A stretch of 31,856 nt of DNA from Crocosphaera subtropica ATCC 51142. GTDB lineage: Bacteria > Cyanobacteriota > Cyanobacteriia > Cyanobacteriales > Microcystaceae. Shown in pieces: positions 1,436 to 31,200 of the stretch. The notes below the pieces were generated by a model that was given only the letters and a program-made list of their open reading frames with translations, ran no database searches and was not told where the DNA came from. Both the position numbers and the translations under genes were made by a program. The stretch covers positions 1 to 31,856 of the forward strand of contig NC_010541.1 of NCBI RefSeq assembly GCF_000017845.1. The letters run 5' to 3'. Numbering within the stretch: position 1 is the stretch's first letter; each line of letters opens with the position of its first letter.

Positions 1436-2026
1436 ATGATCATCACCGTCGCCTCGTTCAAGGGAGGCGTAGGAAAATCCACCACGGCCTTACATTTAGC
1501 AGCTTACTGTCAGCAATTAGCCCCTTCGCTGTTGGTAGACGGGGACTTAAACCGCAGTGCTTTAGACTGGGCTAGTCGGGGACAACTACCCTTTAAAGTC
1601 GTGGATGAAAAACAGGGCGTGAAATATGCCAGAAACTACGAACACATTATTATCGACACCCCTGCTCGTCCTGCACCCGACGATCTTAAAACCATTGCTG
1701 AAGGATGTGATTTACTAATTCTGCCTACCAGTCCCGATGCTTTGGCTTTAGGAGCAACTTTGCAAATGGTTGATGCTCTGCACTCGTTAGAAGCAAATTA
1801 TCGAATTTTACTGACCTTAATACCTCCACGTCCCTCTAAAGCAGGCTCTGAAGCAAGAACCGCCATTAAAAATGCCCAATTGCCCCTGTTTAAAACAGGG
1901 ATTCGGCGGTTGGCAGTGTTTCAAAAAGCAGCCCTTGAGGGGGTTCCTGTCAATCAAGTTAAAGACCCCTACGCTAATGCAGCGTGGGATTGTTATGTCA
2001 AAGTCGGCCAGGAGATCCTACCATGA
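1436..2026 (+). CDS. parA: ParA-family partition ATPase (small, type Ib-like)
   Basis: 196 aa. Deviant Walker A box SFKGGVGKST at the N-terminus and IIIDTP Walker B-like. No N-terminal DNA-binding extension. Its stop overlaps the next ORF's start (ATGA at 2023-2026). Confidence 0.9.
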   Translation: MIITVASFKGGVGKSTTALHLAAYCQQLAPSLLVDGDLNRSALDWASRGQLPFKVVDEKQGVKYARNYEHIIIDTPARPAPDDLKTIAEGCDLLILPTSPDALALGATLQMVDALHSLEANYRILLTLIPPRPSKAGSEARTAIKNAQLPLFKTGIRRLAVFQKAALEGVPVNQVKDPYANAAWDCYVKVGQEILP

Positions 2027-2283
2027 ACAAAAAACCATCAAGCCGTTTTGATGACCTGTTCAGTGCAGCCCGTAATAAAACCCAAGAGACTTCATCAGAG
2101 TCAACAAAGACATCTCCTACAAAAAAAAGCAAAAGCCGTGACCCTGATTATGTGAGGACAACCATCTATCTTCCCAAGCGACTCCATCAACAACTGAAAG
2201 TGGCTGCCGTTCAAGGGGATAAGGATATGAGTGAGATTATAGAAGGGTTGGTCGATGCCTGGGTTCAGTCTGAGGACACTTAA
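2023..2283 (+). CDS. Ribbon-helix-helix centromere-binding partner (ParG-like)
   Basis: 86 aa from ATG 2023, with AGGAG at 2010-2014 and translational coupling to parA. The GTG at 1984 in the ORF track is probably not the real start. Basic, disordered N-terminal tail; C-terminal RTTIYLPKRLHQQLKVAAVQGDKDMSEIIEGLV fits a strand-helix-helix (RHH) pattern. Confidence 0.7.
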   Translation: MNKKPSSRFDDLFSAARNKTQETSSESTKTSPTKKSKSRDPDYVRTTIYLPKRLHQQLKVAAVQGDKDMSEIIEGLVDAWVQSEDT

Positions 2284-7623: not shown

Positions 7624-10600
7624 TTACAAACTCAACCCATTATCTCGACTACGCTGTTGAGACTTTTGAACAAGTTTCTGCTTAAGCTGATTTAATCGTT
7701 GCTCAATTTCTGGGTCAATCTGAGCAATTAACTCTCTATCTTTTTCATTAAGATTACCTTGAATTCGTCCATCTTTTTTCTGGAGAATTAAACCTCGTTG
7801 ACTAGCAGAATATAATTCTATTGTCTCATAGTCAGTAGAGGCTTTAATCATATAACGTGGCCGTTTCAATCGTCGCCATCCGTGTTGAGGTGGGATATTT
7901 AAGAACTGCATTAATTTAGTCAGGGACTCAATAGCTTTTACGTTATTCAAGTCCGCTAACCGTTGCTCAGATGAAGGGGTTTGTAAAGTTGTCTTTGAAG
8001 CATCGGGCTTATTTTGAGAGGGTTTTACCGTCTGTTTAGGAGTAGGAGAAACTGACGATTGTTTCTCAATCGGTTGCTTTTTAACTGCTTTCTTTTCTGT
8101 AGTTTCCTTCTGGTTTTTATCCCCTTTAAGACGTTCCGCTAATTCCTGTAATCGTTGTTGGTTTTCGTCAGAAAGTTGGTTAGATTTAGCCAGAGTGTCT
8201 AAGAGTTCTTTCAGTTTTTTATTAAGGTTAGCATCAGCTTCATTGAAAATAATTAATGGTTCAGCTATCTCTTTATCAAGATGATTATTAGGTTTCTTGA
8301 CTTCAGCATTGGTCACAGCTTCAGACTCAGTAACTTCTGATAAGATTGTATCATTATCTGTCTCAATTTTTTCATCGGAAATTATTTTAGATTGAGAAAC
8401 GGACTCAGGAATTGGATTAGTTAAATCCCTATTTTTTTTAGTTTCAATTTCTAAGTTTCGCTTAACTGATTGAGAAGCTTTCTGTTCTAAAGGCTTCAAT
8501 TCTTCATCACTAATTTGGTTATAATTCTCAATTAACTTCTCATCCTTATCCCTTATTGGCTTCTTATTCGACGGAAATGATGAAACAGTAGTTACTGGTT
8601 TTTCTTGAGGTACATTAGTAACATTACTTGAAGAATCAACAACTGAAACTGAAGAGGGTTGAGTGGTAAAACTTGATACTTCTTTCCCATCTGCCCCTCT
8701 TTCTTTTGTTTTATATTTACCCTTAAGTAAAGCCTTTTGACGAGCGCGTAATAATTCTAAAGGATTCTTTTTCGCCCTCGATGCTTTAGCCAAGTCCAGT
8801 AAATTATCTTTATCCAAAGTATATAACTTTAAGTCAGACTTGACCCTAGAAACCGCTACATAAAAGCTTTCCTTGCCAACAGTATAATCAGCCGAAATTA
8901 ACACTTGGTCTGCGGTTTTACCTTGGGATGAATAAGTCGTACTAACTAACCCATAATCTAAATGTTGGGGAACACTAAAATTAAAACTATCTTGTTGGCC
9001 ATCCTTGTATTCAATGGTGGCTATTGTCCCTTCAATAGCTTTAACCGTAAATTCTTGACCGTTTCTGCGTCCTTGTTTTCTATCATTCTTAGTCCACTTT
9101 AATCTATCTCCTACTGCAATTTCAATCTCCGAACTCCCATAAACCGCTTTCTCAAATAAAGGATCGACTTTAACCCTGTTTCCTGTCGAATCTTTCAGAG
9201 TTAAACTATCAACATCTTTATCAATGATTTCATAAAGTTCCCCTTTGCTTAATTGACGTTGTTTGTAATTAAAAGCAGGACTGACTAAATCCCCGATTTC
9301 TAAATGATGGGTAAAGCGCATTTGTACCCTCGTTAAATCCTTACTTTTCAGTTGGGTAAGCTTGACCCCTTCTCCTAACTTTCCTTCCTCTTTTAATCCT
9401 TGACGAATAGTTTGAGTAATGGCCAACCGTTCCGCATTCGTTCCTGCCAAAATTAAGGTTTTTTCTCTATCCGCTTCAGGGATTTTCAAGTAATCATTAA
9501 CAATCTGATTAATTTTCTCCTCTTCAGCCACTTCAATTAAACAATTAGCCTGATTAAGAATACCAAACCCTGCATCAATTTCCCCCTTAGAAATGAAATC
9601 CACGGCGGTTTGTAGTTCAGGGGTGCGCTGTCGTAGGGATTGATTCATTCGAGCAGTGGTCATTCCTGCTGCTTGTAAAGACTTGAACGGGTTTCCTGCT
9701 TCTACGGCGGATAATTGGCGCGTGTCTCCCACTAACAACACTCTGGCGTTTTCAGCTTTTGCCCGTTTTAATAATTCATAAGCTGCTTTGGCACTGAGTA
9801 ACCCAGCTTCGTCAACGATCCAAATTTGGTTAGGTTCTACCTGTTTTGCTTGTTTGGAATACAGTAAACTAGCCACTGTATCGGCTTTAATGCCAACCTC
9901 AAATCCTAAAACCTTGGCCGCTTCAGCAGACGGGGCAAACCCTTTAACTGAGTAGCCATTTTTTTGACTCAAAGTAGTGAAATGATTTAACGCGTATGTT
10001 TTCCCGGCACCTGCTACCCCTTGCCATGCCATTACGGTGTCACGGCTACTTAACGCGGTGGTGATGGCTTCCTGTTGTCCCTCTGTTAGCGAGATGGGGG
10101 CTAAACCCTGATTAATCTTTGCTTCTGAGCAGATAGGACGTTCTTTATTTTTCCCTTCTAACATTAAACGAATGGTGGCCAGTTCTCGTTGTAAAGCAGC
10201 TTCGGTGGTATAGCGACGGTTAAGGTTGTCACTAACGTTAATTAATTGAGAATGCTGACCAATGGTTTTATCAAGGTTCTTTATATTAATGGGTTGACCA
10301 TTTAATAAGATAAATTTTTCTACCTCTTCAAGCCGAAAGGCCACAGCCCTTTCTTCACAATGAGCGATGGCATCATTGACAATATTAGCCTTAATAGGGC
10401 TTGGTTGAGAGATAGCATTTTGGTCAATATTGCCTTGATTTGCCTGATAATCACTCCCCCTGCTCCTCTGCTCCCTCTGCTCCCTCTGCTCCCTCTGCTC
10501 CCTCTGCTTCCTCTGCTCCCTCTGCTCCCTCTGCTCCCCTAACCCTTCACCTTTTTTATCCAAACCAGTATTAGGATTAACAAATTTAACCCCTAATTCA

Positions 10601-11418
10601 CTGGCTTCTCGTTGCCATTTCTGCTTCAACTCAGATGGGGATACCACTTCTTTTTTGACACGGGTATTGCCCCAAGCGATGTTACGCTCAACCACACTGG
10701 CATTTTCCCCGGCTTCGGCTAAAATCTGTTGTCGCCGTTTAGAAAAGAATTCCAGGTCTTTTTTCTCATAACCAGCAATTTCAAACTGTCCATGCTGTTT
10801 GGCTTCTACTTGATAACCCAGCTTCCTTAATTCCAAGGCTAAGTTATGTTGATAGACCATCCCTAATAATTTCTGTTGGCGGTAAATGGCATCGTTGTGG
10901 AGGCTGCGCCATTGGCCATCGTCTCGTTGGGTGACGTTCATGACCACACAATGGGTATGTAGATGGGGGTCTAAGTTTCTGGTTTCGATGTGGTCAAATT
11001 GAGCAACGGCTAACTTGCCGGTCTGAACCACTTGCCGGGGCTGTCCTTTCTTTAAAATGCGACTTTGAGCATAACGGGACTCCATCAAGGCTAGGGTTTG
11101 GTTGACAGCCTTGCGATGAGCTTCAATTAGTCGTTCGTCTCCACCGACTAAGGCTTGTAAACTGACACTTTTGGGGGCGTTAAAGGTACAGTCAATGGCG
11201 GCGCGGTGTTGATTGCCTTTGATTTTCCGCCCCATGAGACAGTGGTTGCCGTCGGGGGACTGGCCATCTAAGAGGTTATTGTAAGCGTCATGGTTTTTAA
11301 TTTCTCCCGTCAAGTTGAGATTGGCTGCCCCTTCACCGAACCATCGGCCTTCCTCGTAGTAGCCTTTTTCAAAGTAGGTCTTAGCCAGTTCTGCATTAAC
11401 GTTCTTAATGGTCAGCAT
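7624..11418 (-). CDS. MobF-family (TrwC/TraA-like) conjugative relaxase fused to a RecD-like helicase, with a long low-complexity tail
   Basis: 1264 aa. N-terminal MLTIKNV...YFEKGYYEEG..WFGEGAANLNLTGEI (TrwC-type Tyr motif) and the His-triad DHIETRNLDPHLHTHCVVMN. Helicase Walker A GVAGAGKTYAL and Walker B IWIVDEAGLL. The last ~385 aa are Lys/Glu/Ser/Gln-rich. Confidence 0.9.
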   Translation of the reverse strand: MLTIKNVNAELAKTYFEKGYYEEGRWFGEGAANLNLTGEIKNHDAYNNLLDGQSPDGNHCLMGRKIKGNQHRAAIDCTFNAPKSVSLQALVGGDERLIEAHRKAVNQTLALMESRYAQSRILKKGQPRQVVQTGKLAVAQFDHIETRNLDPHLHTHCVVMNVTQRDDGQWRSLHNDAIYRQQKLLGMVYQHNLALELRKLGYQVEAKQHGQFEIAGYEKKDLEFFSKRRQQILAEAGENASVVERNIAWGNTRVKKEVVSPSELKQKWQREASELGVKFVNPNTGLDKKGEGLGEQREQREQRKQREQREQREQREQRSRGSDYQANQGNIDQNAISQPSPIKANIVNDAIAHCEERAVAFRLEEVEKFILLNGQPINIKNLDKTIGQHSQLINVSDNLNRRYTTEAALQRELATIRLMLEGKNKERPICSEAKINQGLAPISLTEGQQEAITTALSSRDTVMAWQGVAGAGKTYALNHFTTLSQKNGYSVKGFAPSAEAAKVLGFEVGIKADTVASLLYSKQAKQVEPNQIWIVDEAGLLSAKAAYELLKRAKAENARVLLVGDTRQLSAVEAGNPFKSLQAAGMTTARMNQSLRQRTPELQTAVDFISKGEIDAGFGILNQANCLIEVAEEEKINQIVNDYLKIPEADREKTLILAGTNAERLAITQTIRQGLKEEGKLGEGVKLTQLKSKDLTRVQMRFTHHLEIGDLVSPAFNYKQRQLSKGELYEIIDKDVDSLTLKDSTGNRVKVDPLFEKAVYGSSEIEIAVGDRLKWTKNDRKQGRRNGQEFTVKAIEGTIATIEYKDGQQDSFNFSVPQHLDYGLVSTTYSSQGKTADQVLISADYTVGKESFYVAVSRVKSDLKLYTLDKDNLLDLAKASRAKKNPLELLRARQKALLKGKYKTKERGADGKEVSSFTTQPSSVSVVDSSSNVTNVPQEKPVTTVSSFPSNKKPIRDKDEKLIENYNQISDEELKPLEQKASQSVKRNLEIETKKNRDLTNPIPESVSQSKIISDEKIETDNDTILSEVTESEAVTNAEVKKPNNHLDKEIAEPLIIFNEADANLNKKLKELLDTLAKSNQLSDENQQRLQELAERLKGDKNQKETTEKKAVKKQPIEKQSSVSPTPKQTVKPSQNKPDASKTTLQTPSSEQRLADLNNVKAIESLTKLMQFLNIPPQHGWRRLKRPRYMIKASTDYETIELYSASQRGLILQKKDGRIQGNLNEKDRELIAQIDPEIEQRLNQLKQKLVQKSQQRSRDNGLSL
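10468..10539 (-). repeat. 9-bp coding microsatellite (CTGCTCCCT)x8 encoding (EQR)n in the relaxase linker
   Basis: Eight head-to-tail 9-bp units (one CTGCTTCCT variant, last unit CTGCTCCCC) plus a partial unit at 10459-10467. Translated on the minus strand this gives EQREQREQRKQREQREQREQREQR, between the relaxase and helicase domains. Confidence 0.95.
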
Positions 11419-11767
11419 TCCCTTCCTCTTCTACCAGTGGTTCAAGTTGAAGATCAGGGAGTGCCTTTAACTGAGTGATAAGACTTTCACTCAGTTCGGT
11501 TCGGATGCACCAGATGCTAATCTGTTTAAACCGGTTCACTTTGTTTTGATAAAAGAACCGATCTATTTCAGGCAAGGCTTTGATTAGTTCTACTGCTGAT
11601 GAGTGGTAACGGGTAAATAACAAAGCCACCCAGTCAGTGAACTTCAACGGATAAATATAAACCACTTCTTTTCGTAAGCTTCCATCGAATAACAGACGGT
11701 CACTTATCTCCTTACACTCTATTTGTAATTGTCGTTTGGGCCAGCTTTTCTCTTCTACAATCATCAA
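11405..11767 (-). CDS. Hypothetical protein, possible relaxosome accessory factor
   Basis: 120 aa, no motif recognised. Its 3' end overlaps the relaxase start by 14 nt (operon coupling), the position usually held by MobF accessory proteins. Confidence 0.5.
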   Translation of the reverse strand: MMIVEEKSWPKRQLQIECKEISDRLLFDGSLRKEVVYIYPLKFTDWVALLFTRYHSSAVELIKALPEIDRFFYQNKVNRFKQISIWCIRTELSESLITQLKALPDLQLEPLVEEEGNADH

Positions 11768-12132
11768 TCAATCAGTAATACGTTTGAAGTTATTTTGTCG
11801 TTAAATTTACGAATTAGTAAATTCTCATAGAGGGGGTGTTAGAATCTATTATAATGGTTTTGCCAAAACTTGGCGTAATGTGCAAAGTCATATGAAAAAA
11901 AGTAGGTTGCTCATAGCTAGTCAGTTTTTGAGAAAATTAGCTCATAAAGGAACTCGGTAGGTGAGCCGAATGGGGTCAGTTGGGGTCACTGAATAGAAAG
12001 ACTGTAACTGTATTGAGCCTAGTATGAGCAAAAATAAAAGCTTTTTAGGGTATCTTGAGTCAGTTTTGAGCCAGCGAAACGGTCAAAAAATCGCTAGAAT
12101 CAGATCATGGTGATATTAACTGATGTGAGGAG
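11768..12132. promoter_or_regulatory. Repeat-rich divergent intergenic region (candidate oriT and/or centromere and promoters)
   Basis: Lies between the mob operon (minus) and the actin-like operon (plus). Contains tandem TGGGGTCAGT/TGGGGTCACT (11971-11990). GTCAGTTTTTGAG (11920-11932) and GTCAGTTTTGAG (12059-12070). Inverted TTGCTCATA (11907-11915) / TATGAGCAA (12023-12031). TGAGCC occurs three times. Confidence 0.4.
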
Positions 12133-13617
12133 ATGCCAGATTTAATACTTGCCCTGGATTTTGGAGCTAGTGCGACTAAGATCGCGTATCGAAGTGGGTC
12201 AACGGAAGGTTCATCGAAGTTTGAGGTGGTGATGATGCCTCCGGACATTGAACCCATTGACCGTGACAAATTAGAACGGTATCAGACGAGAGACACCATA
12301 GTTGTGACTCAAGTCCCTGAGATAGAAGAGATTTGGATTGAGACTAAGGATAAACTGTATGCAGTCGGTCACTTAGCACGATTGTTTGAGCCGGTGGATA
12401 AGATCAAAGATGTCAAATATGAAGTGGCTGCCTATAAAACCCTGGCTGCAATGGGTTATGTTCTGTCTACCCTGACTCAACAAAACCAGTTACCCAAGAA
12501 AAAGAATTATAAAATTGCCCTAGCGGTGGTGCTACCGTGGGAAGAGTTTCCTGATAAAGATCGTTTCAAGTCCTTTTTAGAATTGCTCCTGTCTAACTGG
12601 AAATATAGGGATAAAAAATGGGGCATTAAACTGGAATCTTTCTCAGTGCGTCAAGAAGGGTTCGGGTTATTTTACCTGTATCAAAAGAGTATGTTCAAAC
12701 CATCGTTAGATCGTATGGCGATTTTGATGTTTGGGCATCGTAATATTTCGGCCCTATATTTTAAGGATAAAAAGCTTCATAGTGGCTCTTCCCCACTGCT
12801 AGGATTTCACCAAGTATTTGATCGTGTTGCTCAATCCATTTCTTGGTTAGATAGACAGACCATAGTTAACACCTTTGAAACCATCTGGCAGAATCATCGA
12901 CAGGCTTTTTTTAAAACCACCTACATCGAGAAAAAGCCAGAAAATCAGCCCTTGCTCCAGCGATGGAGGATCAAAGTAGGAACCTATCACCATTATGTGG
13001 CTATTGAGATGAAGTTTCCTAATTGGGCTGCACTCAAACCGATTCAGGATTTAGCCAGAGCATCAGATCCCGACCTCAGACAAAGGGAAATTAATGACAT
13101 TGCCCATGCCATCACTTTAGCCTTAGAGGAATATATTGAGTCGTTTCAAAAATGGTATAACTCAATGTTTCCTGAACCGCTTTCGACAATAGTAATTAGT
13201 GGAGGAGCGAGTTGGTTTATTCGCCCCTTACTATCTGAATGGTTCTCAGAAGGGATTGGTGTCGGCTTTAATCTTGGCTATAATAATTCGCTTCAAAGAC
13301 TGTCTGAATATCAATCGGCTAAATCTCTTGATGAAGTAGGTTTATCTATTTATTTATCTAATTTTCCCGACTCTCTAAGTGACTGGGAAAAAAGAAGAAA
13401 TTGGTTTCATGTCAGTCCAATTTACCGTCCTTATGAAGCTAACCCAAGGGGAATCGAGAAAGAGATTGTTAAAGAAAGACGGCTATATTTCACCATGTCC
13501 AAATATTCTCAAATTCCCAATCTTAATGCTTATGAATCTTTTTCTTTCTCTTATCAACGTAAGGCCGATGTGATTGGATTAGGGGCTTATCTCATGGATA
13601 AAACCTTAAAGACTTGA
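12133..13617 (+). CDS. Divergent actin-like ATPase (ParM/Alp superfamily-like)
   Basis: 494 aa. LILALDFGASATKIAY (phosphate-1, nt 12154-12180), LAVVLPWEEF, VRQEGFGLFY and IVISGGASWF (adenosine motif, ~13194-13211). The phosphate-2 position is degenerate (AILMFGHRNISALY). The call rests on motif order only. Confidence 0.55.
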   Translation: MPDLILALDFGASATKIAYRSGSTEGSSKFEVVMMPPDIEPIDRDKLERYQTRDTIVVTQVPEIEEIWIETKDKLYAVGHLARLFEPVDKIKDVKYEVAAYKTLAAMGYVLSTLTQQNQLPKKKNYKIALAVVLPWEEFPDKDRFKSFLELLLSNWKYRDKKWGIKLESFSVRQEGFGLFYLYQKSMFKPSLDRMAILMFGHRNISALYFKDKKLHSGSSPLLGFHQVFDRVAQSISWLDRQTIVNTFETIWQNHRQAFFKTTYIEKKPENQPLLQRWRIKVGTYHHYVAIEMKFPNWAALKPIQDLARASDPDLRQREINDIAHAITLALEEYIESFQKWYNSMFPEPLSTIVISGGASWFIRPLLSEWFSEGIGVGFNLGYNNSLQRLSEYQSAKSLDEVGLSIYLSNFPDSLSDWEKRRNWFHVSPIYRPYEANPRGIEKEIVKERRLYFTMSKYSQIPNLNAYESFSFSYQRKADVIGLGAYLMDKTLKT

Positions 13618-13650
13618 AGGACATAAACAGAAAAAAGGTTATTTAATTGA

Positions 13651-14136
13651 TTGATGAAGCTGTTAACTGGAGTGAACATGGACAAAGGGAGAAAGAACTT
13701 TCATATTAGATTACAACCTGATAGCGAGAGTTTATTAGGGGAAGTCATCGACTATTTACAGACCTTAAAAAAAGAGGAGTTAAATAAGCGAGTGGGAGAG
13801 CTTTTAGTGGCTGCTTTTTTACCCCTAGCGAGGTATCATCAAAACACTTCTGACTCTGAAGAGTTAAGAATTACTTGTATTAATTCCTGTGATGCTTTGA
13901 GTCGTCATAGTGAATATTTGCGTCAGTTATTGAAAGTGAATCATCCAACAACATTGCATTTAGTTTTGTCGAGTAATGTTGTTGCTGACCCCAATCAAAT
14001 TGTTTCTCAAGTGACTCATCAAGCGTCACCAGTGGTTAATCAGACTCCTGAACAAAATGGGGATAAAGAAGTTGAGGAAGATTCATCTCCTCCTCTTGAA
14101 GAAACCGATGATGTTTTTGGAGGGTTTGATGATTAG
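13651..14136 (+). CDS. Hypothetical RHH-like protein with acidic C-terminal tail (possible ParR-like adaptor)
   Basis: The ORF track starts at TTG 13651. ATG 13678 preceded by GGAG (13669-13672) is the more likely start (152 aa). RKNFHIRLQPDSESLLGEVIDYLQTL resembles an RHH strand plus helix. The C-terminus EEDSSPPLEETDDVFGGFDD is strongly acidic. Confidence 0.45.
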   Translation: MMKLLTGVNMDKGRKNFHIRLQPDSESLLGEVIDYLQTLKKEELNKRVGELLVAAFLPLARYHQNTSDSEELRITCINSCDALSRHSEYLRQLLKVNHPTTLHLVLSSNVVADPNQIVSQVTHQASPVVNQTPEQNGDKEVEEDSSPPLEETDDVFGGFDD

Positions 14137-14172: not shown

Positions 14173-14559
14173 TTAGACTTCTAATTCTAATTTTAATTGA
14201 CCTGGACTGATATTGCCTCGTTGTCCTCGGTGCAGATAAAGATGACAGGCACTACACAAAGGAATAAGATTAGATTCATGATTATTACTTGGATCATAAT
14301 CGCTATGATGGACGGTTAAAGTATATTTGGTTCTTACACTTTTATCGGTTAACCATTGTTGTATTATTATTAACCAAAATAGGAGTAATGATAGGGGATG
14401 AATAGCTTTATATAGGATGGTAGGACAAAGGTTAATCGATAATTTGTCATCAGGAGATAGACAGATTTGCCCACATTTAGAACAAGTCCAATTAGCCGAC
14501 TGTTTAACCCTTAAGGCAATTTCGTCCCAATCATCAGGATATCTATCTCTATTTTTCAT
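14173..14559 (-). CDS. HNH endonuclease-family protein
   Basis: 128 aa. CSKCGQ near the N-terminus and TLTVHHSDYDPSNNHESNLIPLCSACHLYLH give the HNH motif with a flanking Cys pair. Confidence 0.75.
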   Translation of the reverse strand: MKNRDRYPDDWDEIALRVKQSANWTCSKCGQICLSPDDKLSINLCPTILYKAIHPLSLLLFWLIIIQQWLTDKSVRTKYTLTVHHSDYDPSNNHESNLIPLCSACHLYLHRGQRGNISPGQLKLELEV

Positions 14560-15397: not shown

Positions 15398-15511
15398 GTG
15401 ACAATTATCAAAGTGTCCCCTATCTATTGAATCAAAACAGTGGCGATTTTAAGCTTATTGTAAATCGATAATTAATCGGTCATTTGTGGTGTGAGAGGGT
15501 ATGTAAGAAAG

Positions 15512-15550
15512 CACTTGGGGTCGAAACACGGCAAGACTCCCAGGTGTTTT
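15512..15550. terminator. Bidirectional terminator-like hairpin
   Basis: CACTTGGGG (15512-15520) pairs with TCCCAGGTG (15538-15546) as a 9-bp stem with two G-U pairs. It is flanked by an A-rich stretch (AAGAAAG) upstream and TTTT (15547-15550) downstream. It lies ~50 nt beyond the stop of the minus-strand gene 15601-16482. Confidence 0.5.
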
Positions 15551-15600
15551 CTATTAGCAATAAATAAGCACAGTTCAATGGTGTAACTATTAAATCATTT

Positions 15601-16482
15601 TTAAGAATTAACTATTTCTTGAATCGCTTGTATCATCAGAACTTGATTCTCTTTTTCACGAGTTAGAACATCAATGATTAAATCAGTTTTTCGACGCTTT
15701 CTAGACTGTGAATAATCCCGACTTGTAAAAACTGTCTTCCCTTTTAATGAATTAAACTGTTTCATTATTTGTTGAAGCTGTGTGACTGTTAATTTTCGCA
15801 CCTTGGAGATCGTTTTCTTGACCTCCTCATCGTGAGATAAGCTAGAATCCTTCTCAGTTTCTTCATGGGGTAGATTATTAGCTTCTACCACTTCACTCAA
15901 TGGAGTGTCCTCATCCTCCATTTTGGATGTATCCTCAAGAGAATCATCTCTGTTGACCGTATTATCTATTACTGGTTCAATGGATTGATTATCAGTCTTA
16001 AGCTCTTTTAGCTCCTGAATTGCTTTTGTTAACCCATCTAAATAATGATCTAATGAATCTATATGGGTTTTCATCGATTGGATCGTGGGATGTTTGGAAA
16101 TCGCCTCTTCTAATGATTCTGGGGATTGATTAACAGATTGTTGAACAAATTGTTTGACAGATTTTAATAACTCCTGTTTGACGTTCTGTATATCGTTTTG
16201 ATAAACAGTCTTCTCTAATTCTTGTGTAACAGTCTGTTGTACAAGTTGTTTAACGTCAACTTGATTAACACTTTGTTGAACAGATTGTGATACACTATCA
16301 AATCCTAAGCCTTTGGTGATGAGATCAATGATGGTGGCTGTTTTATCGTACTTCCCGTCACCCTTGGCAAAGTGAGTCATCCCATAGGCTTCTATTTGGT
16401 GATAGAGGTTATGGGGGATTCTAGCAGCTATGGCTATGCTCTTAGAAGTTATCCAGGTTTGATTGGGGTTCGTCTCACTCAT
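15601..16482 (-). CDS. Hypothetical Gln/Val-rich repeat protein with RHH-like N-terminus
   Basis: 293 aa. N-terminal SIAIAARIPHNLYHQIEAYG resembles an RHH strand-helix. The central degenerate repeats are VSQSVQQSVNQ / VKQLVQQTVTQ / VKQFVQQSVNQ. An acidic middle is followed by a basic C-terminal region. No family recognised. Confidence 0.6.
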   Translation of the reverse strand: MSETNPNQTWITSKSIAIAARIPHNLYHQIEAYGMTHFAKGDGKYDKTATIIDLITKGLGFDSVSQSVQQSVNQVDVKQLVQQTVTQELEKTVYQNDIQNVKQELLKSVKQFVQQSVNQSPESLEEAISKHPTIQSMKTHIDSLDHYLDGLTKAIQELKELKTDNQSIEPVIDNTVNRDDSLEDTSKMEDEDTPLSEVVEANNLPHEETEKDSSLSHDEEVKKTISKVRKLTVTQLQQIMKQFNSLKGKTVFTSRDYSQSRKRRKTDLIIDVLTREKENQVLMIQAIQEIVNS

Positions 16483-22274: not shown

Positions 22275-25200
22275 ATGGCACTTAGACAATGGGATGGAGA
22301 CGAAGGTAATGGTCTCTGGAGTTTCGCAAGGAACTGGGACAATGATACTCCACTTGCAGATAATGATGACATTCAAATCGGAGCAGGTTTTGGGACGACT
22401 ATCTTTAATGGTCAAATTAATGGTCAAAATACCTTAACAATTGGCACTTTAACGTCTCAAAGTGCTTTAGAAGTCTCAGCAGGAACACTAACGGCTACTA
22501 ACACCTTTGATGTTGATGATAATCTCACCATAAGCAATGGGACTCTTGAGCTTAATGGAACAAGTACCGTTAATACCTTTACGCAAACAGGTGGCACTTT
22601 ACAAGGTAGCGGAGTCTTAACCATTAGTGGAAATGCTGAGTGGGACGGAGGAAACCAAAGAGGAACAGGTATCACTGAAGTTGACGGGACTCTGACCTTT
22701 GGGGGAGTCGGACAAAAGATTTTAGGGGGTAGTGGAGAGTCAAGAACCCTAGAAATTAATAATGGAGCTATTTGGAATACCACCAGTAGTCTATTCTTAC
22801 AGGGTGACTCCATCATCAACAATAATACAGGGTCAACTTTTGATATCCAAGAAGATAGTACAGGCTTTATTGGTATCTTCAATAGTATCGGCACCAATAA
22901 TACCTTTAATAACGCTGGAACCCTAGTCAAGTCAGCAGGGGATGACCGTTTTATTATTGATATTGTCTTTAACAACACAGGAACCGTTCAAGCCACCAAT
23001 GGCATTTTAGACTTAGGGGGAGGTGGCGACCATAGTGGAGACTTTGAAGGAACCGCTACCTTAGAATTTGGAGGGGGAACCCATAATCTCAACAGTGGTA
23101 GCAGTGTGACGGCTTCAGATGTTGATATTACTGGTGGTACCGTTAATGTCAATACAGGAGCTACCTACAACACGAACAGAACCGATGTTAGTTTCGGGAC
23201 ATGGGAAATTGCCAATGCTGCTACCATCGGCACAGGGAGTCAAAGTGGTGGCACTATAACAGGGGCAGGAAACCTGCAAGTTACAGGAGACTTCGACTGG
23301 AACGGAGGAAACCAGAATGGTACAGGCACCACTGAAGTCGATGGCACTCTCACCTTTGGGGGAACCGGACAAAAGATTTTAGGAGCCTTTGGAGAGTCAA
23401 GAACCCTAGACATTAATAATGGAGCCATTTGGGAGACCACTGGTAACTTATTGTTACAAGGTGGCTCTATTATCAATAACAATGTGGGGTCAACCTTTAA
23501 TATTCAAGAAGACAGCACGGGCTTTATTGGTATCTTGAATGGTGGTGCAGGGGGAGGAACCTTTAATAACGCCGGAACCCTAGTTAAGTCAGCAGGGGAT
23601 GACCGTTTTGCCATTGATATTGTCTTTAACAACACAGGAACCGTTCAAGCCACCAATGGCATTTTAGACTTAGGGGGAGGTGGCGACCATAGTGGAGACT
23701 TTGAAGGAACCGCTACCTTAGAATTTGGAGGGGGAACCCATAATCTCAACAGTGGTAGCAGTGTGACGGCTTCAGATGTTGATATTACTGGTGGTACCGT
23801 TAATGTCAATACAGGAGCTACCTACAACACGAACAGAACCGATGTTAGTTTCGGGACATGGGAAATTGCCAATGCTGCTACCATCGGCACAGGGAGTCAA
23901 AGTGGTGGCACTATAACAGGGGCAGGAAACCTGCAAGTTACAGGAGACTTCGACTGGAACGGAGGAAACCAGAATGGTACAGGCACCACTGAAGTCGATG
24001 GCACTCTCACCTTTGGGGGAACCGGACAAAAGATTTTAGGAGCCTTTGGAGAGTCAAGAACCCTAGACATTAATAATGGGGCCATTTGGGAGACCACTGG
24101 TAACTTATTGTTACAAGGTGGCTCTATTATCAATAACAATGTGGGGTCAACCTTTAATATTCAAGAAGACAGCACGGGCTTTATTGGTATCTTGAATGGT
24201 GGTGCAGGGGGAGGAACCTTTAATAACGCCGGAACCCTAGTTAAGTCAGCAGGGGATGACCGTTTTGCCATTGATATTGTCTTTAACAACACAGGAACCG
24301 TTCAAGCCACCAATGGCATTTTAGACTTAGGGGGAGGTGGCGACCATAGTGGAGACTTTGAAGGAACCGCTACCTTAGAATTTGGAGGGGGAACCCATAA
24401 TCTCAACAGTGGTAGCAGTGTGACGGCTTCAGATGTTGATATTACTGGTGGTACCGTTAATGTCAATACAGGAGCTACCTACAACACGAACAGAACCGAT
24501 GTTAGTTTCGGGACATGGGAAATTGCCAATGCTGCTACCATCGGCACAGGGAGTCAAAGTGGTGGCACTATAACAGGGGCAGGAAACCTGCAAGTTACAG
24601 GAGACTTCGACTGGAACGGAGGAAACCAGAATGGTACAGGCACCACTGAAGTCGATGGCACTCTCACCTTTGGGGGAACCGGACAAAAGATTTTAGGAGC
24701 CTTTGGAGAGTCAAGAACCCTAGACATTAATAATGGGGCCATTTGGGAGACCACTGGTAACTTATTGTTACAAGGTGGCTCTATTATCAATAACAATGTG
24801 GGGTCAACCTTTAATATTCAAGAAGACAGCACGGGCTTTATTGGTATCTTGAATGGTGGTGCAGGGGGAGGAACCTTTAATAACGCCGGAACCCTAGTTA
24901 AGTCAGCAGGAGATGACCGTTTTGCCATTGATATTGTCTTTAACAACACAGGAACCGTTCAAGCCACCAATGGCATTTTAGACTTAGGGGGAGGTGGCGA
25001 CCATAGTGGAGACTTTGAAGGAACCGCTACCTTAGAATTTGGAGGGGGAACCCATAACCTCAGTAGTAATACCACCGTCTCTGTTCCCAATGTTATTTTT
25101 AGTGCTGGCACAACCAATTTAGCGGGAGACTATGTCTTACCCAGTGGCGGTACCACAACCGTTTCAGGAGGAACAGCCAACTTTACGGGAACGATTACAG

Positions 25201-28200
25201 GTAATAGTATCGGCGATGTTACTCTCAGTTTTGGGACACTGAACCTAAGTACAGGGAGTGCAGTAACAGCCACCAGTCTTGTCCAAACAGGGGGAACTCT
25301 TACTGGTAGCGATGATTTGACTGTCACAGGAGACTTCGACTGGAACGGAGGAAACCAGAATGGTACAGGCACCACTGAAGTCGATGGCACTCTCACCTTT
25401 GGGGGAACCGGACAAAAGATTTTAGGAGCCTTTGGAGAGTCAAGAACCCTAGACATTAATAATGGGGCCATTTGGGAGACCACTGGTAACTTATTGTTAC
25501 AAGGTGGCTCTATTATCAATAACAATGTGGGGTCAACCTTTAATATTCAAGAAGACAGCACGGGCTTTATTGGTATCTTGAATGGTGGTGCAGGGGGAGG
25601 AACCTTTAATAACGCCGGAACCCTAGTTAAGTCAGCAGGAGATGACCGTTTTGCCATTGATATTGTCTTTAACAACACAGGAACCGTTCAAGCCACCAAT
25701 GGCATTTTAGACTTAGGGGGAGGTGGCGACCATAGTGGAGACTTTGAAGGAACCGCTACCTTAGAATTTGGAGGGGGAACCCATAACCTCAGTAGTAATA
25801 CCACCGTCTCTGTTCCCAATGTTATTTTTAGTGCTGGCACAACCAATTTAGCGGGAGACTATGTCTTACCCAGTGGCGGTACCACAACCGTTTCAGGAGG
25901 AACAGCCAACTTTACGGGAACGATTACAGGTAATAGTATCGGCGATGTTACTCTCAGTTTTGGGACACTGAACCTAAGTACAGGGAGTGCAGTAACAGCC
26001 ACCAGTCTTGTCCAAACAGGGGGAACTCTTACTGGTAGCGATGATTTGACTGTCACAGGAGACTTCGACTGGAACGGAGGAAACCAGAATGGTACAGGCA
26101 CCACTGAAGTCGATGGCACTCTCACCTTTGGGGGAACCGGACAAAAGATTTTAGGAGCCTTTGGAGAGTCAAGAACCCTAGACATTAATAATGGAGCCAT
26201 TTGGGAGACCACTGGTAACTTATTGTTACAAGGTGGCTCTATTATCAATAACAATGTGGGGTCAACCTTTAATATTCAAGAAGACAGCACGGGCTTTATT
26301 GGTATCTTGAATGGTGGTGCAGGGGGAGGAACCTTTAATAACGCCGGAACCCTAGTTAAGTCAGCAGGGGATGATAACTTCACTATTAACATTGATTTCA
26401 ACAATACAGGGACAGTTTCAGCCAATAATGGTATTTTAACTTTCAGTGACAACTATACTCAAAGTGCAGGAGATACTCGCCTCGATGGTGGAAGCATTGT
26501 TGTTAGTTCTAATCCCCTGGATATTAATGCAGGGAATGTCTCTGGTTTTGGTAGTATTGATGGGGATATTGATAACGACGCAGGGAGGATTACCCCTGGT
26601 TTATCGGTAGGTGATATTGCAATGTTAAATATCACAGGGGACTATAGCGAAACCGATTTCTCTAACATTGACATTGAAATTGGTGGCCTCACTAATTTCG
26701 ATATCCTTGATATTGACGGGACAGCAACTTTAGATGGTACTGTCAACGTTAGCTTGGTTAATGGTTTTACCCCAACCCTCGGTCAAACCTTTGAAATTAT
26801 TACCTTTGATTCGGCTCCTGATATTGCCACGAATCTTTCCTTTAGTGGGTTAGATATTGGTGGAGGATTAGCATTCGCTCCTGTGTTTAATACCAATGAC
26901 TTGAGCCTAGTCGTAGTAGAAACCGCAGCCTTATCTGTCAGTGATGTCATTATTTCAGAAGGAGATAATGGAACCACCAATGCAACCTTTAACGTTACCC
27001 TGAATGGTGAGACGGATGCCTTCGATGTTGATTTTGCAACAGTTGACAGCACGGCAACGGTGGCAGATGGTGACTATATAGCTAATAGTGGCACCCTAAG
27101 CTTTGATGGCACAGATGGTCAGACTCGCACCGTTACGGTTCAGGTGAATGGGGATAATAAGGTAGAGCTAAATGAAACCTTTGACCTCGTTCTCAGTAAC
27201 CTTCAAGGTAATGGAACGTTACCAGTTCTCGTGTCTGGCACTGGCACTATCAATAATGATGATAGTGCTAACATCAGCATTGACAATGTGACCCAAAGTG
27301 AAGGAAATAATGGCACAACGCCTTTTACCTTTACTGTTACCCTCAACAATGAAGTGGATACTGGGTTATCAGTGGACTTTGCTACCGCCAATGGTTCAGC
27401 CACTGTGGCCAATAATGATTATCAAGCTACCAACGGAACCCTCAACTTTACAGGGAATGCAGGGGAAACCCAAACCATTACGGTTGACGTAGTCGGAGAT
27501 ACTACCGTTGAACCGGATGAAACGTTTGTGGTCAACCTCAATAACCTGCAAGCTAACGGACGGAATATTATTCTGAGTGACTCGCAAGGGATTGGAACCA
27601 TTGAAAATGATGATGGAGCCAATCTTTCCATCACTAATGTTAACTTAGTCGAAGGAGATAATGGGACTCAGCAATTTGTCTTCAGCGTTACTCTCAGCAA
27701 CACTATTAGTGGCGGTGCAACGGTTGATTTTACCACTGCTGACAACACAGCTACAACCACTGATAACGACTATACTGCCACCAGTGGCACGTTGACTTTT
27801 AGCGGTAATGCAGGGGAAGTTGAAACCATTACCGTTGACGTAATTGGAGATACTGAAGTAGAACTGAATGAAACCTTCTTGGTTAATCTTTCTAATGCGT
27901 CGTCAGGAGTAACCATTGCTGATGGACAGGGAACGGGAACCATTGTTAATGATGATGCTGCCAGCTTAAGTATTAGCGATGTCACTCTCAGCGAAGGAAA
28001 CAACGGCACTCAACTCTATACCTTTACCGTCACCTTAGATGAAGCGGTTGATACAGGGTTTACGGTTGATTATGCTACAGCCAACAATACAGCTAGTATA
28101 GGAGATGGTGACTACACGGCGGTTAATGGCACTTTAAGCTTTGATGGAAACGCAGGGGAAACCCAAACCATTACGGTTGAAGTGAATGGAGATAACAAAG

Positions 28201-31200
28201 TAGAACTCGATGAAACCTTCTTTGTTAATCTCTCTAATCTACAAAACAGTGGTCGCAATGTTGTTATTACTGACGGACAAGGTGTTGGAACCATTAGCAA
28301 CGACGATAGTGCTTCTTTGAGTATTAACAACGTCACTCAAAGCGAAGGGAACAGTGGCACCACTGCTTATACTTTCGATGTCACCTTAGATAACGAAGTG
28401 GACACAGGGTTATCCCTTGACTTTGACACAGCCGATAATACGGCAACCGTTGCTGATAATGATTACACGGCTAACAGTGGAACCCTCAACTTTACAGGGA
28501 ATGCAGGAGAAGTCCAAACCATCACCGTTGAAGTGAATGGAGATACTAAGGTTGAACCCAATGAAGCGTTCTTGGTTAACCTGTCTAACCTCAATGCTAA
28601 TGGCCGTGATGTAACGATTAGCGATGCTCAAGGCATTGGAACCATTGAAAACGATGATGGTGCCGGCTTCTCTATCAGTAACGCCACCGTAACAGAAGGG
28701 GATAATGGCACTCAAACCTTAACCTTTGATGTCACCCTCAATAATGCTGTTAGTGGTGGCGCAAGTGTGGACTTTGACACAGCAGACGGAACAGCCACCA
28801 CAGCAGATGGGGATTATACGGCTAATAGTGGCACTCTAACCTTTGCTGGTAATGCAGGGGAAACCCAAACTATTACGGTTGAAGTGAATGGAGATAACAA
28901 GGTTGAACTCAATGAAACCATCTTGGTTAACCTTTCTAATGCCATCGGAGCCGATATTGTAGATGGACAGGGAACAGGAACCATTGTTAATGACGATAGT
29001 GCTTCTTTGAGTATTAACAACGTCACTCAAAGCGAAGGAAATAGTAACACCACTATCTTTACCTTCGATGTCACCCTAGATAACGCAGTGGATACAGGGT
29101 TATCCCTTGACTTTGACACAGCCGATAATACGGCAACCGTTGCTGATAATGATTACACGGCTAACAGTGGAACCCTCAACTTTACAGGGAATGCAGGGGA
29201 AGTCCAAACCATCACCGTTGAAGTTAATGGAGACACCATCGTTGAACCCAATGAAGATTTCTTGGTTAACCTGTCTAACCTCAATGCTAATGGCCGTGAT
29301 GTAACGATTAGCGATGCTCAAGGCATTGGAACCATTGAAAACGATGATGGTGCCGGCTTCTCTATCAGTAACGCCACCGTCACCGAAGGGGATAATGGCA
29401 CTCAAACCTTAACCTTTGATGTCACCCTCAATAATGCTGTTAGTGGTGGCGCAAGTGTGGACTTTGACACAGCAGACGGAACAGCCACCACAGCAGATGG
29501 GGATTATACGGCTAATAGTGGCACTCTAACCTTTGCTGGTAATGCAGGGGAAACCCAAACTATTACGGTTGAAGTGAATGGAGATAACAAGGTTGAACTC
29601 AATGAAACCATCTTGGTTAACCTTTCTAATGCCATCGGAGCCGATATTGTAGATGGACAGGGAACAGGAACCATTGTTAATGACGATAGTGCTTCTTTGA
29701 GTATTAACAACGTCACTCAAAGCGAAGGAAATAGTAACACCACTATCTTTACCTTCGATGTCACCCTAGATAACGCAGTGGATACAGGGTTATCCCTTGA
29801 CTTTGACACAGCCGATAATACGGCAACCGTTGCTGATAATGATTACACGGCTAACAGTGGAACCCTCAACTTTACAGGGAATGCAGGGGAAGTCCAAACC
29901 ATCACCGTTGAAGTTAATGGAGACACCATCGTTGAACCCAATGAAGATTTCTTGGTTAACCTGTCTAACCTCAATGCTAATGGCCGTGATGTAACGATTA
30001 GCGATGCTCAAGGCATTGGAACCATTGAAAACGATGATGGTGCCGGCTTCTCTATCAGTAACGCCACCGTAACAGAAGGGGATAATGGCACTCAAACCTT
30101 AACCTTTGATGTCACCCTCAATAATGCTGTTAGTGGTGGCGCAAGTGTGGACTTTGACACAGCAGACGGAACAGCCACCACAGCAGATGGGGATTATACG
30201 GCTAATAGTGGCACTCTAACCTTTGCTGGTAATGCAGGGGAAACCCAAACTATTACGGTTGAAGTGAATGGAGATAACAAGGTTGAACTCAATGAAACCA
30301 TCTTGGTTAACCTTTCTAATGCCATCGGAGCCGATATTCTAGATGGACAGGGAACAGGAACCATCAACAACGATGATAGTGCATCTATCAGTATCAACAA
30401 TGTTAGTCAAGCAGAAGGAAATAGTAACACCACTATCTTTACCTTCGATGTCACCCTAGATAACGCAGTGGATACAGGGTTATCCCTTGACTTTGACACA
30501 GCCGATGATACGGCAACCGTTGCTGATAATGATTACACAGCTAATAATGGCACCCTTAACTTTACAGGGAATGCAGGGGAAGTCCAAACCCTTACCGTTG
30601 AAGTTAATGGAGACACCATCGTTGAACCCAATGAAGATTTCTTGGTTAACCTGTCTAACCTCAATGCTAATGGCCGTGATGTAACGATTAGTGAGGCTCA
30701 AGGCATTGGAACCATTGAAAACGATGATGGTGCCGGCTTCTCTATCAGTAACGCCACCGTCACCGAAGGGGATAATGGCACTCAAACCTTAACCTTTGAT
30801 GTCACCCTCAATAATGCTGTTAGTGGTGGCGCAAGTGTGGACTTTGACACAGCAGACGGAACAGCCACCACAGCAGATGGGGATTATACGGCTAATAGTG
30901 GCACTCTAACCTTTGCTGGTAATGCAGGGGAAACCCAAACTATTACGGTTGAAGTGAATGGAGATAACAAGGTTGAACTCAATGAAACCATCTTGGTTAA
31001 CCTTTCTAATGCCATCGGAGCCGATATTGTAGATGGACAGGGAACAGGAACCATTGTTAATGACGATAGTGCTTCTTTGAGTATTAACAACGTCACTCAA
31101 AGCGAAGGAAATAGTGGCACCACTGCTTATACTTTTGATGTCACCTTAGATAACGAAGTGGACACAGGGTTATCCCTTGACTTTGACACAGCCGATGATA

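Follow-up and report, generated by a model that had tools for sequence, protein, structure and literature searches.

Within a 31,856-nt stretch of DNA from Crocosphaera subtropica ATCC 51142 (contig NC_010541.1, positions 1 to 31,856; hereafter the window), we analysed a pair of plus-strand genes encoding an actin-like protein of 494 amino acids (aa; 12133-13617) and a small putative adaptor of 152 aa (13678-14136). An earlier note made from the sequence alone had described them as a diverged actin-like ATPase with its partner, and as a second segregation-type module of the replicon. A 365-bp intergenic region separates this ParM-like operon from a divergent operon on the minus strand, which comprises a gene for a MOBF (TrwC-type) relaxase-helicase of 1264 aa (7624-11418) and a gene for a 120-aa accessory protein (11405-11767) that overlaps the relaxase start by 14 nt. 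The relaxase matches Pfam TrwC (6e-87) and AAA_30 (9e-54), and its NCBIfam MobF match (1.4e-90) is over the cutoff of that model. The intergenic region contains a predicted nic region of an origin of transfer (oriT) and, between it and the start of the ParM-like gene, a candidate array of adaptor-binding sites.

As judged from profile searches and a modelled structure, the 494-aa protein is a ParM-family actin-like protein with the phosphate-1, connect-1, phosphate-2, adenosine and connect-2 elements of the ASKHA/actin fold in order. The reading frame stands where the earlier note placed it, and all five actin/ParM motifs quoted there fall on conserved columns of a 28-sequence family alignment. 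In this alignment D9-x-G11-x-S13 corresponds to phosphate-1, G201-H-R203-N204 occupies the phosphate-2 position and G357-G358 is the adenosine motif, with L134-P135-x-x-E138 and E175-G-x-G178 also conserved. The match to Pfam ALP_N (PF17989) covers the whole model at E 1.5e-5 and 25.7 bits, which misses the gathering threshold of 26.3 bits by 0.6 bit; the relatives P0001, P0005 and P0038 have precomputed PF17989 matches. Against sequences of the Protein Data Bank (PDB), the family profile finds CorM (9rmi) at E 5.8e-20, Clostridium ParMs at ~1e-8 (Cb-ParM at 8e-9) and Alp12 at 1e-4. An AlphaFold2 model built on the alignment has a predicted local distance difference test score (pLDDT) of 81.9 and a predicted template modelling score of 0.82, with parts of residues 380-470 forming a low-confidence stretch. 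The Foldseek top 20 for this model are ParM-type proteins (E 2e-13 to 3e-8), ranked with CorM first, followed by Bacillus thuringiensis ParM, R1 ParM, pSK41 ParM and Alp12, and Hsp70, MreB, MamK and sugar-kinase-type folds rank below the ParMs. The proposed actin/ParM fold is thus borne out by profile, AlphaFold2 and Foldseek comparisons, at a sequence identity to solved ParMs of ~10-15%. The length beyond that of classical ParM also holds true and, relative to relatives of 377-440 aa, those of 433 aa among them, is made up of an insertion at ~aa 255-300 and a C-terminal extension at ~aa 380-470. An exhaustive profile search returned 667 representatives of the family at 50% clustering, 370 of them with E <= 1e-30; the subgroup of 485-494 aa is small, though the ParM-like family as a whole is large.

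At the phosphate-2 position the protein reads M199-F-G-H-R-N and contains no Asp. Residue-level alignments place Met199 opposite the Asp of CorM 'VDIGHQT' and of Clostridium ParM 'LDLGSRT', the R1 ParM counterpart being D170. The non-canonical phosphate-2 sequence already remarked upon in the earlier note turns out to be clade-wide: all ~60 clade members examined have Met, in the pattern [LA]-M-[FI]-G-[HY]-R-N, a count to be read with the fact that the motif was itself the selection criterion in one of the two scan patterns used to gather the clade. Plasmid homologues found independently by tblastn also have the Met. A second acidic residue seven positions downstream, Asp in both CorM and R1 ParM, is Ser or Thr in this clade. 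The clade keeps the phosphate-1 D9, the adenosine GG motif and E175, which corresponds to E148 of R1. In R1 ParM the D170A substitution abolishes filament dynamics while static filaments still form, according to the passage of PMC5539076 that cites Jensen & Gerdes 1997 and Moller-Jensen 2002. By analogy, the loss of the Asp points to altered hydrolysis or dynamics rather than to lost polymerisation, and both hydrolysis and filament dynamics probably differ here from those of R1 ParM. A more radical explanation for the Met, and for the Ser/Thr seven positions downstream, is that the ASKHA-fold protein does not polymerise or is a pseudo-ATPase, having lost its filament function with the phosphate-2 Asp, and that it acts as a regulator that binds nucleotide or as a chaperone-like partner of the small adaptor; the ALP_N score just under its cutoff and the partly low-confidence insertion and C-terminal extension would also fit. 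We consider this very unlikely, as D9, E175 and the adenosine GG are invariant, filament-forming ParMs are the best structural matches, above Hsp70 and sugar-kinase-type folds, the R1 D170A protein is still filamentous (PMC5539076), and an adaptor together with phased DNA sites (described below) fits a system that links filaments to cargo.

The closest solved relative of the window protein is CorM of the CorMR/FcmBC system of filamentous cyanobacteria (PDB 9rmi; NCBIfam NF052678), and both proteins fall within the monophyletic cyanobacterial ParM radiation of the CorMR preprint (bioRxiv 10.1101/2025.06.27.661541). Both have a G-H-x-T/N-like phosphate-2 motif, but CorM keeps the Asp. Assignment of the window protein as an FcmB/CorM orthologue was rejected, since it scores 25.8 bits with the NCBIfam FcmB model, for which the cutoff is 300. 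Control of cell shape by a cortical cytoskeleton of the CorMR/FcmBC kind, to which CorM as closest solved structure and the weak FcmB match might lead, is the least probable of the explanations we considered. In addition to the FcmB score and the missing Asp, the family alignment shows that the 494-aa protein has no N-terminal extension, so that the 40-aa N-terminal intrinsically disordered region is absent; the module is carried on a plasmid of a unicellular, Crocosphaera-like lineage, whereas CorMR/FcmBC is chromosomal and found in filamentous orders only (bioRxiv 10.1101/2025.06.27.661541; PMC12645912); and CorMR is without the parC-like repeats present in this clade.

The gene directly 3' of the ParM-like gene encodes a protein that has a conserved N-domain (~aa 1-95) and, after a disordered linker, ends in the peptide DDVFGGFDD. 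Its start is most likely the ATG at 13678, where the homologues and database gene calls all begin; an alternative TTG at 13651 would give 161 aa. Homologues lie directly 3' of the ParM-like gene in ~50 cyanobacterial loci, and the two genes are therefore conserved as neighbours, as had been proposed. Across the family the N-domain of ~100 aa consists of a basic stretch, [FL]-x-[FLW]-R-[LY]-Q-P and then a helix, the middle is a variable low-complexity linker, and the clade-wide N-terminal pattern (basic-x-x-[FL]-x-[FLW]-R-[LY]-Q-P, then helix) is compatible with the strand of a ribbon-helix-helix (RHH) protein. The N-terminus and DDVFGGFDD tail quoted in the earlier note are both present, but searches bearing on the RHH-like fold it proposed gave no hit: no Pfam match was obtained for the window protein or 28 family members, the family profile and its members match no PDB sequence, and all 85 relatives found are unnamed and without a Pfam domain. 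An AlphaFold2 model from 5 sequences (pLDDT 50) has a coil at residues 1-18, three helices and disorder over residues 86-152. By architecture, as read from its sequence, the adaptor is ParR-like.

The acidic/aromatic tails of the adaptors vary by subgroup (FGGFDD, DDEFG, ALFGD, DWDDNAW, DFDDSGLAGW, YDDTGLSNFL), as would be expected were each tail to dock on its own ParM. Leptolyngbyaceae adaptors of 128 aa (survey loci L022-L038, e.g. L022:9128-9514) end in a basic/aromatic RATRTMWQ tail that is not acidic, and these occur together with short relaxases of 312 aa. One adaptor of 273 aa, P0048 (L003:7369-8190), is a tandem duplication of the N-domain, so that a single chain could mimic a dimer.

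The most conserved element upstream of the ParM-like gene is a predicted MOBF-type oriT nic region and not a centromere. It occupies 11862-11884 on the plus strand and comprises the inverted repeat GCCAA (11862-66)-AAC-TTGGC (11870-74), followed by GTAATGTGC (11875-83) and A (11884); by similarity to R388, the nick is predicted to fall between 11883 and 11884 on this strand. In the intergenic alignment the block TTGGCGTAATGTGCAAA is invariant in five MOBF-subgroup loci, and it is kept even in one locus whose other intergenic DNA is unalignable. Its geometry and strand are those of the R388 nic, GGTGC-GTATTGTCT/A, with seven of ten positions equal over R388 nt 17-26, and the two have in common the extruded T23, a purine at +1 and an inverted repeat ~8-9 nt before the nic core. 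The window block has G at position 24, found 'as in some MOBF plasmids', and a purine at +1 is required (PMC4176350). The R388 nic sequence was located by exact match in R388 itself, on the same strand and at the same place relative to trwABC and stbABC. A diverged copy, TTTGCGTACTGTGCG, lies inside an invariant 28-nt block at the same place and on the same strand in pNPUN03 and a Tolypothrix plasmid. The subgroup of loci with PF03432-type relaxases has an invariant inverted repeat of its own, followed by an ...ACAMTGCGCCT block on the ParM-coding strand that we take to resemble the MOBQ nic core of RSF1010 and pSK41. A nick at 11883/11884 on the plus strand would put the ParM-like operon 3' of the nick and make it the first DNA into the recipient, and stbABC of R388 is likewise leading and the first to enter (PMC3098194).

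The upstream region (11768-12132) had been described in the earlier note as repeat-rich and likened to the centromere of ParMRC systems, and these descriptions hold only in part. Tandem Repeats Finder detects no tandem repeats there, exact k-mers and degenerate repeat families show no clear excess over shuffled sequence (P 0.03-0.7), and by the same three methods repeat counts are near chance in most relatives as well. What does stand out is a candidate adaptor-binding array (parC/operator) at 11909-12071 with six TGAGC/GCTCA cores (11909-13, 11940-44, 11962-66, 12014-18, 12025-29 and 12067-71). No other non-homopolymer word is as frequent between nick and start codon, where it has 6 copies in 243 nt. 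The two closest relatives (L007/L008) agree with the window at all 30 core positions, against a background of 73% (permutation P = 0.0008). With centres 31, 22, 52, 11 and 42 bp apart, the cores share one face of the helix: R is 0.975 at 10.5 bp, with P = 1e-4, or 5e-4 when R is maximised across periods of 10-11 bp. A centromere candidate is thus present in the form of conserved, phased cores, but the dominant conserved element of the region is the oriT nic region.

Clear iteron arrays are seen in distant relatives. Iterons with a period of 11 bp in pNPUN03 and of 10 bp in Tolypothrix plasmid p5 (L071:3732-3949 and L073:3633-3842) are found past the nic-like block and ahead of the ParM start, and their sequences are unrelated to each other. 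This plasmid-specific, helically phased iteron pattern looks like parC. For the PF03432 subgroup a footprint test of the word GCACA was partly circular, the word having been picked after the conserved columns were viewed. A further locus has six copies of the 8-mer TTCACCAA upstream of its ParM-like gene (L040:7700-7989), and at no other locus did the k-mer scan show an exact-word iteron of high significance. No sigma-70-like promoter was found in a scan of 11768-12132, though cyanobacterial promoters may not match the consensus.

To place the module in context we surveyed 63 related loci from metagenomes and genomes, 52 of which were informative. A divergent relaxase lies directly upstream of the ParM-like gene in ~47 of these 52. 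The linked relaxases are of different classes: MOBF in the window subgroup, PF03432-type with NikA/MobC-like accessories in most others, and MOBV in Nostocales. Complete plasmids annotated by the NCBI Prokaryotic Genome Annotation Pipeline (PGAP) agree independently, namely pCC7120delta of Anabaena PCC 7120 (MobV), pCAL6303.01 (MobC and a MOBP relaxase), pGLO7428.02 (MOBP), pNPUN03 and the Tolypothrix plasmid (MobF) and pTCL26-01_B (MobV). The exceptions are two sampled plasmids, and in one of them a transposase has inserted upstream. In a small control sample, two plasmid ParM genes of the CorM-like, Asp-bearing type, no relaxase lies within 4 kb. The window relaxase is 53% identical to the MobF relaxase of pNPUN03, and the 120-aa accessory accompanies the MOBF relaxase in L001, L006, L007 and L008. 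This accessory has no Pfam or NCBIfam match, and its candidacy as a TrwA homologue was rejected in the absence of BLASTP similarity.

The window also contains a type I partition locus separate from the ParM-like module (1436-2283, plus strand). The ParA/ParG-like locus that the earlier note had reported on the replicon is indeed there, as a ParA-like gene (1436-2026; CbiA/ParA Pfam matches and NCBIfam ParA_partition at 1.3e-25, under its cutoff) and a gene for a small RHH-like protein (1984-2283; weak Pfam matches to RH3/RHH_10). At least eight other loci likewise have a co-resident ParA system. These data bear on whether the ParM-like module is a plain, self-contained parMRC cassette, which would segregate the plasmid at cell division only and whose place beside oriT and the relaxase would be inherited backbone synteny without function. 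The ParM fold, the adaptor and the upstream sites or iterons are what such a cassette would have, PGAP calls the relatives 'ParM/StbA family, plasmid partitioning', and all characterised plasmid ParMs that we know of are segregation motors. Yet the adjacency survives while the relaxase is exchanged among three unrelated classes, which inheritance alone hardly explains, many relatives are co-operonic with a TraL/MobD-like ATPase, ParA is co-resident in the window and elsewhere, and the CorM-like copies lack the relaxase linkage. We regard the plain cassette as unlikely, though still a serious contender.

The operon extension is found in many relatives, in Nostocales and others, where the adaptor gene is followed by genes for a TraL/MobD/StbB-like P-loop ATPase and a DUF6753 protein (L069:5705-7508, L070:5885-7780, L072:6045-7927 and L068:5856-7347). 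Matches to TraL, though weak (E 4e-6 to 6e-10), cover the full length. The window copy is without both genes, the next gene being an HNH gene on the opposite strand. In pNPUN03 a gene for ArdA, a typical leading-region gene, lies near the module. Relaxase and ParM-adaptor modules also occur on chromosome-sized contigs of 1.1-8.7 Mb (L029, L058 and L059 (AP018248.1, 4.97 Mb)), and those beside MobV are probably integrated mobilizable elements.

Such features could also be those of a dedicated conjugation or establishment accessory, in which the filament or ATPase would position the relaxosome/oriT or aid the incoming plasmid while vegetative segregation is left mostly to the ParA locus. The leader-operon position 3' of the predicted nick, the three linked relaxase classes, the presence in relatives of a TraL-like ATPase and ArdA within this operon or its region, the probable integrated elements on chromosome-sized contigs and the co-resident ParA all agree with this, as do two precedents: StbB of R388 is needed for conjugation and not for stability (PMC3098194), and ParM and ParR of R1 stimulate TraI and bind TraD/TraC (PMC4949242). 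However, plasmid-specific iterons with a 10-11-bp period are typical of centromeres, 30 of 104 host plasmids are typed non-mobilizable and the window has no type IV secretion system (T4SS) genes. We judge an accessory dedicated to transfer to be distinctly improbable.

Several lines of evidence suggest that the module is functionally coupled to the mobilization region: the linkage across three relaxase classes, the co-operonic TraL-like ATPases, the co-resident ParA and the occurrence beside MobV on chromosome-sized contigs. On balance we lean towards a reading in which 12133-13617 and 13678-14136 constitute a DNA-positioning module of type II (ParMRC-like) that occupies the leader position at the oriT of a mobilizable cyanobacterial plasmid and probably serves establishment and segregation with relaxosome cross-talk. 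In this model, dimers of the adaptor would bind the six TGAGC cores, which share one helical face and span ~160 bp between the nick and the parM-like start; these sites probably overlap the operon promoter, in which case the adaptor would also autoregulate. The FGGFDD peptide may dock on the ParM-like protein and so couple the plasmid to filaments, as its architecture and the subgroup-specific tails suggest. The ParM-like protein, whose fold is shown by the comparisons above, would polymerise with nucleotide and move or position plasmid copies. Lying 3' of the predicted nick, the operon would enter the recipient first, and its control region is common to the relaxase operon. The module would probably then serve plasmid establishment and segregation, with relaxosome cross-talk of the kind seen for R388 stbABC and R1 ParMR. 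The view of a second segregation-type module beside the ParA locus is upheld to this extent, but the earlier note had missed the tie to the relaxase and oriT, a tie that bears on its own alternative, 'an actin-like machine with another role'.

A number of observations weigh against this reading. Every functional statement, and each step of the mechanism, derives from sequence, structure prediction and synteny. The plasmid already carries a ParA system. The DNA-binding RHH fold of the adaptor is unproven, and the TGAGC cores are only 5 bp long and were chosen post hoc as the most repeated non-homopolymer word, with a conservation that weakens once the 76%-identical locus L009 is added. The nic hairpin is no more stable than shuffled sequence (z -0.7 to -1.3, from folding windows that for L009 and L006 did not cover the element). 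No T4SS or coupling-protein gene is present in the 31.9-kb window. The whole clade is without the Asp needed for R1 dynamics, so that ParM-like dynamics may not apply. Finally, where the module sits on a chromosome-sized contig, partition would be unneeded unless the element excises.

Comparison with characterised systems helps to define what is shared and what is not. With ParMRC systems (R1 parMRC, pSK41 parMR, Clostridium and Bacillus ParMs, Alp12) the module shares the actin/ParM fold, the order of NTPase gene and small adaptor gene, an adaptor built of N-terminal domain, flexible linker and short C-terminal peptide, and candidate upstream cis sites with helical periodicity, in the form of 10-11-bp iterons in relatives and phased cores in the window. 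It differs in the phosphate-2 Met of its clade, in the 494-aa length with insertion and C-terminal extension, and in an adaptor without detectable similarity to ParR or any RHH family; moreover, ParMRC is free-standing, whereas the window module is fixed beside oriT and the relaxase. The layout is that of R388 stbABC and RP4 traK-L-M, operons that diverge from the MOB operon across oriT and lie 3' of the nick (for stbABC-oriT-MOB in R388, see PMC3098194). These, too, include a DNA-binding adaptor system and occur with several MOB classes, and their TraL/MobD/StbB-like ATPase has a counterpart in the third gene of the window module's relatives. Unlike in those systems, the window module has an actin-type motor in place of a Walker ATPase, its adaptor bears no relation to StbA/TraK and it is without the TraL-like gene. 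SrpMRC, which is carried on integrative and conjugative elements (PMC4489591), is a further case of a highly diverged ParM with an adaptor of no recognisable ParR homology on a conjugative element, and its link between partition and transfer has been measured yet is unexplained; it differs in its proteobacterial lineage, its co-transcribed integrase and its location away from oriT. Binding of oriT by type I Par proteins, another precedent for coupling partition with transfer, has also been described (PMC12421886).

Plasmid-encoded cyanobacterial ParMR clades, one of them mostly plasmid-borne and of unknown function, were catalogued by Springstein et al. (bioRxiv 10.1101/2025.06.27.661541). As in those clades, a plasmid ParM is here followed by a small 'ParR' named by context, and the relatives of the window protein on plasmids of PCC 7120, Crinalium and Calothrix belong to pairs of the sort found in Supplementary File 1 of that preprint, where accessions are given without clade labels. 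The preprint makes no mention of relaxases or oriT and does not discuss the Asp-to-Met change, and no link of cyanobacterial ParM to relaxases was found in the literature searched. Cyanobacterial plasmid ParM/'ParR' pairs were therefore already known; what is new is that the phosphate-2 site of this ParM family is remodelled, that its adaptors make up an uncharacterised family and that its place beside oriT is fixed.

A bolder proposal, possible but put forward tentatively, is that the clade is the actin-based counterpart of the Stb/TraKLM leader systems, a motor with a remodelled catalytic site (Met for Asp) that physically couples the relaxosome/oriT to a filament, with an adaptor bound next to the nick, and that was recruited repeatedly by MOBF, MOBP/Q-type and MOBV modules throughout cyanobacteria. 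If so, it would arbitrate between vertical segregation and horizontal transfer, or would drive establishment of the incoming plasmid, its genes being expressed in the recipient before any others. As a rule, partition and conjugation are seen as separate; the few links known (R388 Stb, R1 ParMR-TraI and SrpMRC) have in no case been resolved in mechanism. The Asp-to-Met exchange would be a natural experiment, in ParM-type filaments without the residue needed for R1 dynamic instability, and the relative on pCC7120delta of the genetically tractable Anabaena PCC 7120 is a natural system for the question of motor-coupled inheritance or transfer. The predicted oriT and par module would also be useful parts for cyanobacterial vector design.

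Some carriers of the module may be linear, hairpin-ended replicons: in a 114-kb contig, a gene for a ResT/TelK-type telomere resolvase lies 1 kb downstream of the ParM-adaptor module (L004:8180-9205), and pGLO7428.02 is recorded as linear. The window relaxase has a low-complexity (REQ)n insertion (aa ~295-320; 10360-10542), which the pNPUN03 MobF relaxase is without, and which yields a spurious LLP-repeat open reading frame (ORF) on the opposite strand. A gene for an HNH-like nuclease (14173-14559, minus strand) with weak HNH and ZorE-like matches is convergent with the adaptor gene; the relaxase operon of L004 also contains an HNH gene.

The rest of the 31.9-kb window is plasmid backbone, as Pfam and NCBIfam scans of its ORFs indicate, with genes for a large primase/helicase-type protein, Fic, zeta and PIN toxins and an integrase in addition to the MOBF relaxase. 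The nearest relatives come from Crocosphaera, at 94-95% identity, and a DNA search among plasmids found no near-identical plasmid record. An Rfam search of the module locus gave no match. Elsewhere in the window, a Cyano-1 small RNA (15485-15555, plus strand; RF01701, 46.7 bits, over the gathering score) lies between an Hsp20 gene and a 293-aa ORF (15601-16482, minus strand) in which sequences such as VKQLVQQTV and SVNQ recur and which has no family assignment. A giant plus-strand ORF of >3193 aa (22275-31856), whose first 1000 aa have no Pfam match, continues past the window end and contains 9.4 copies of a 351-nt repeat at 28152-31418.

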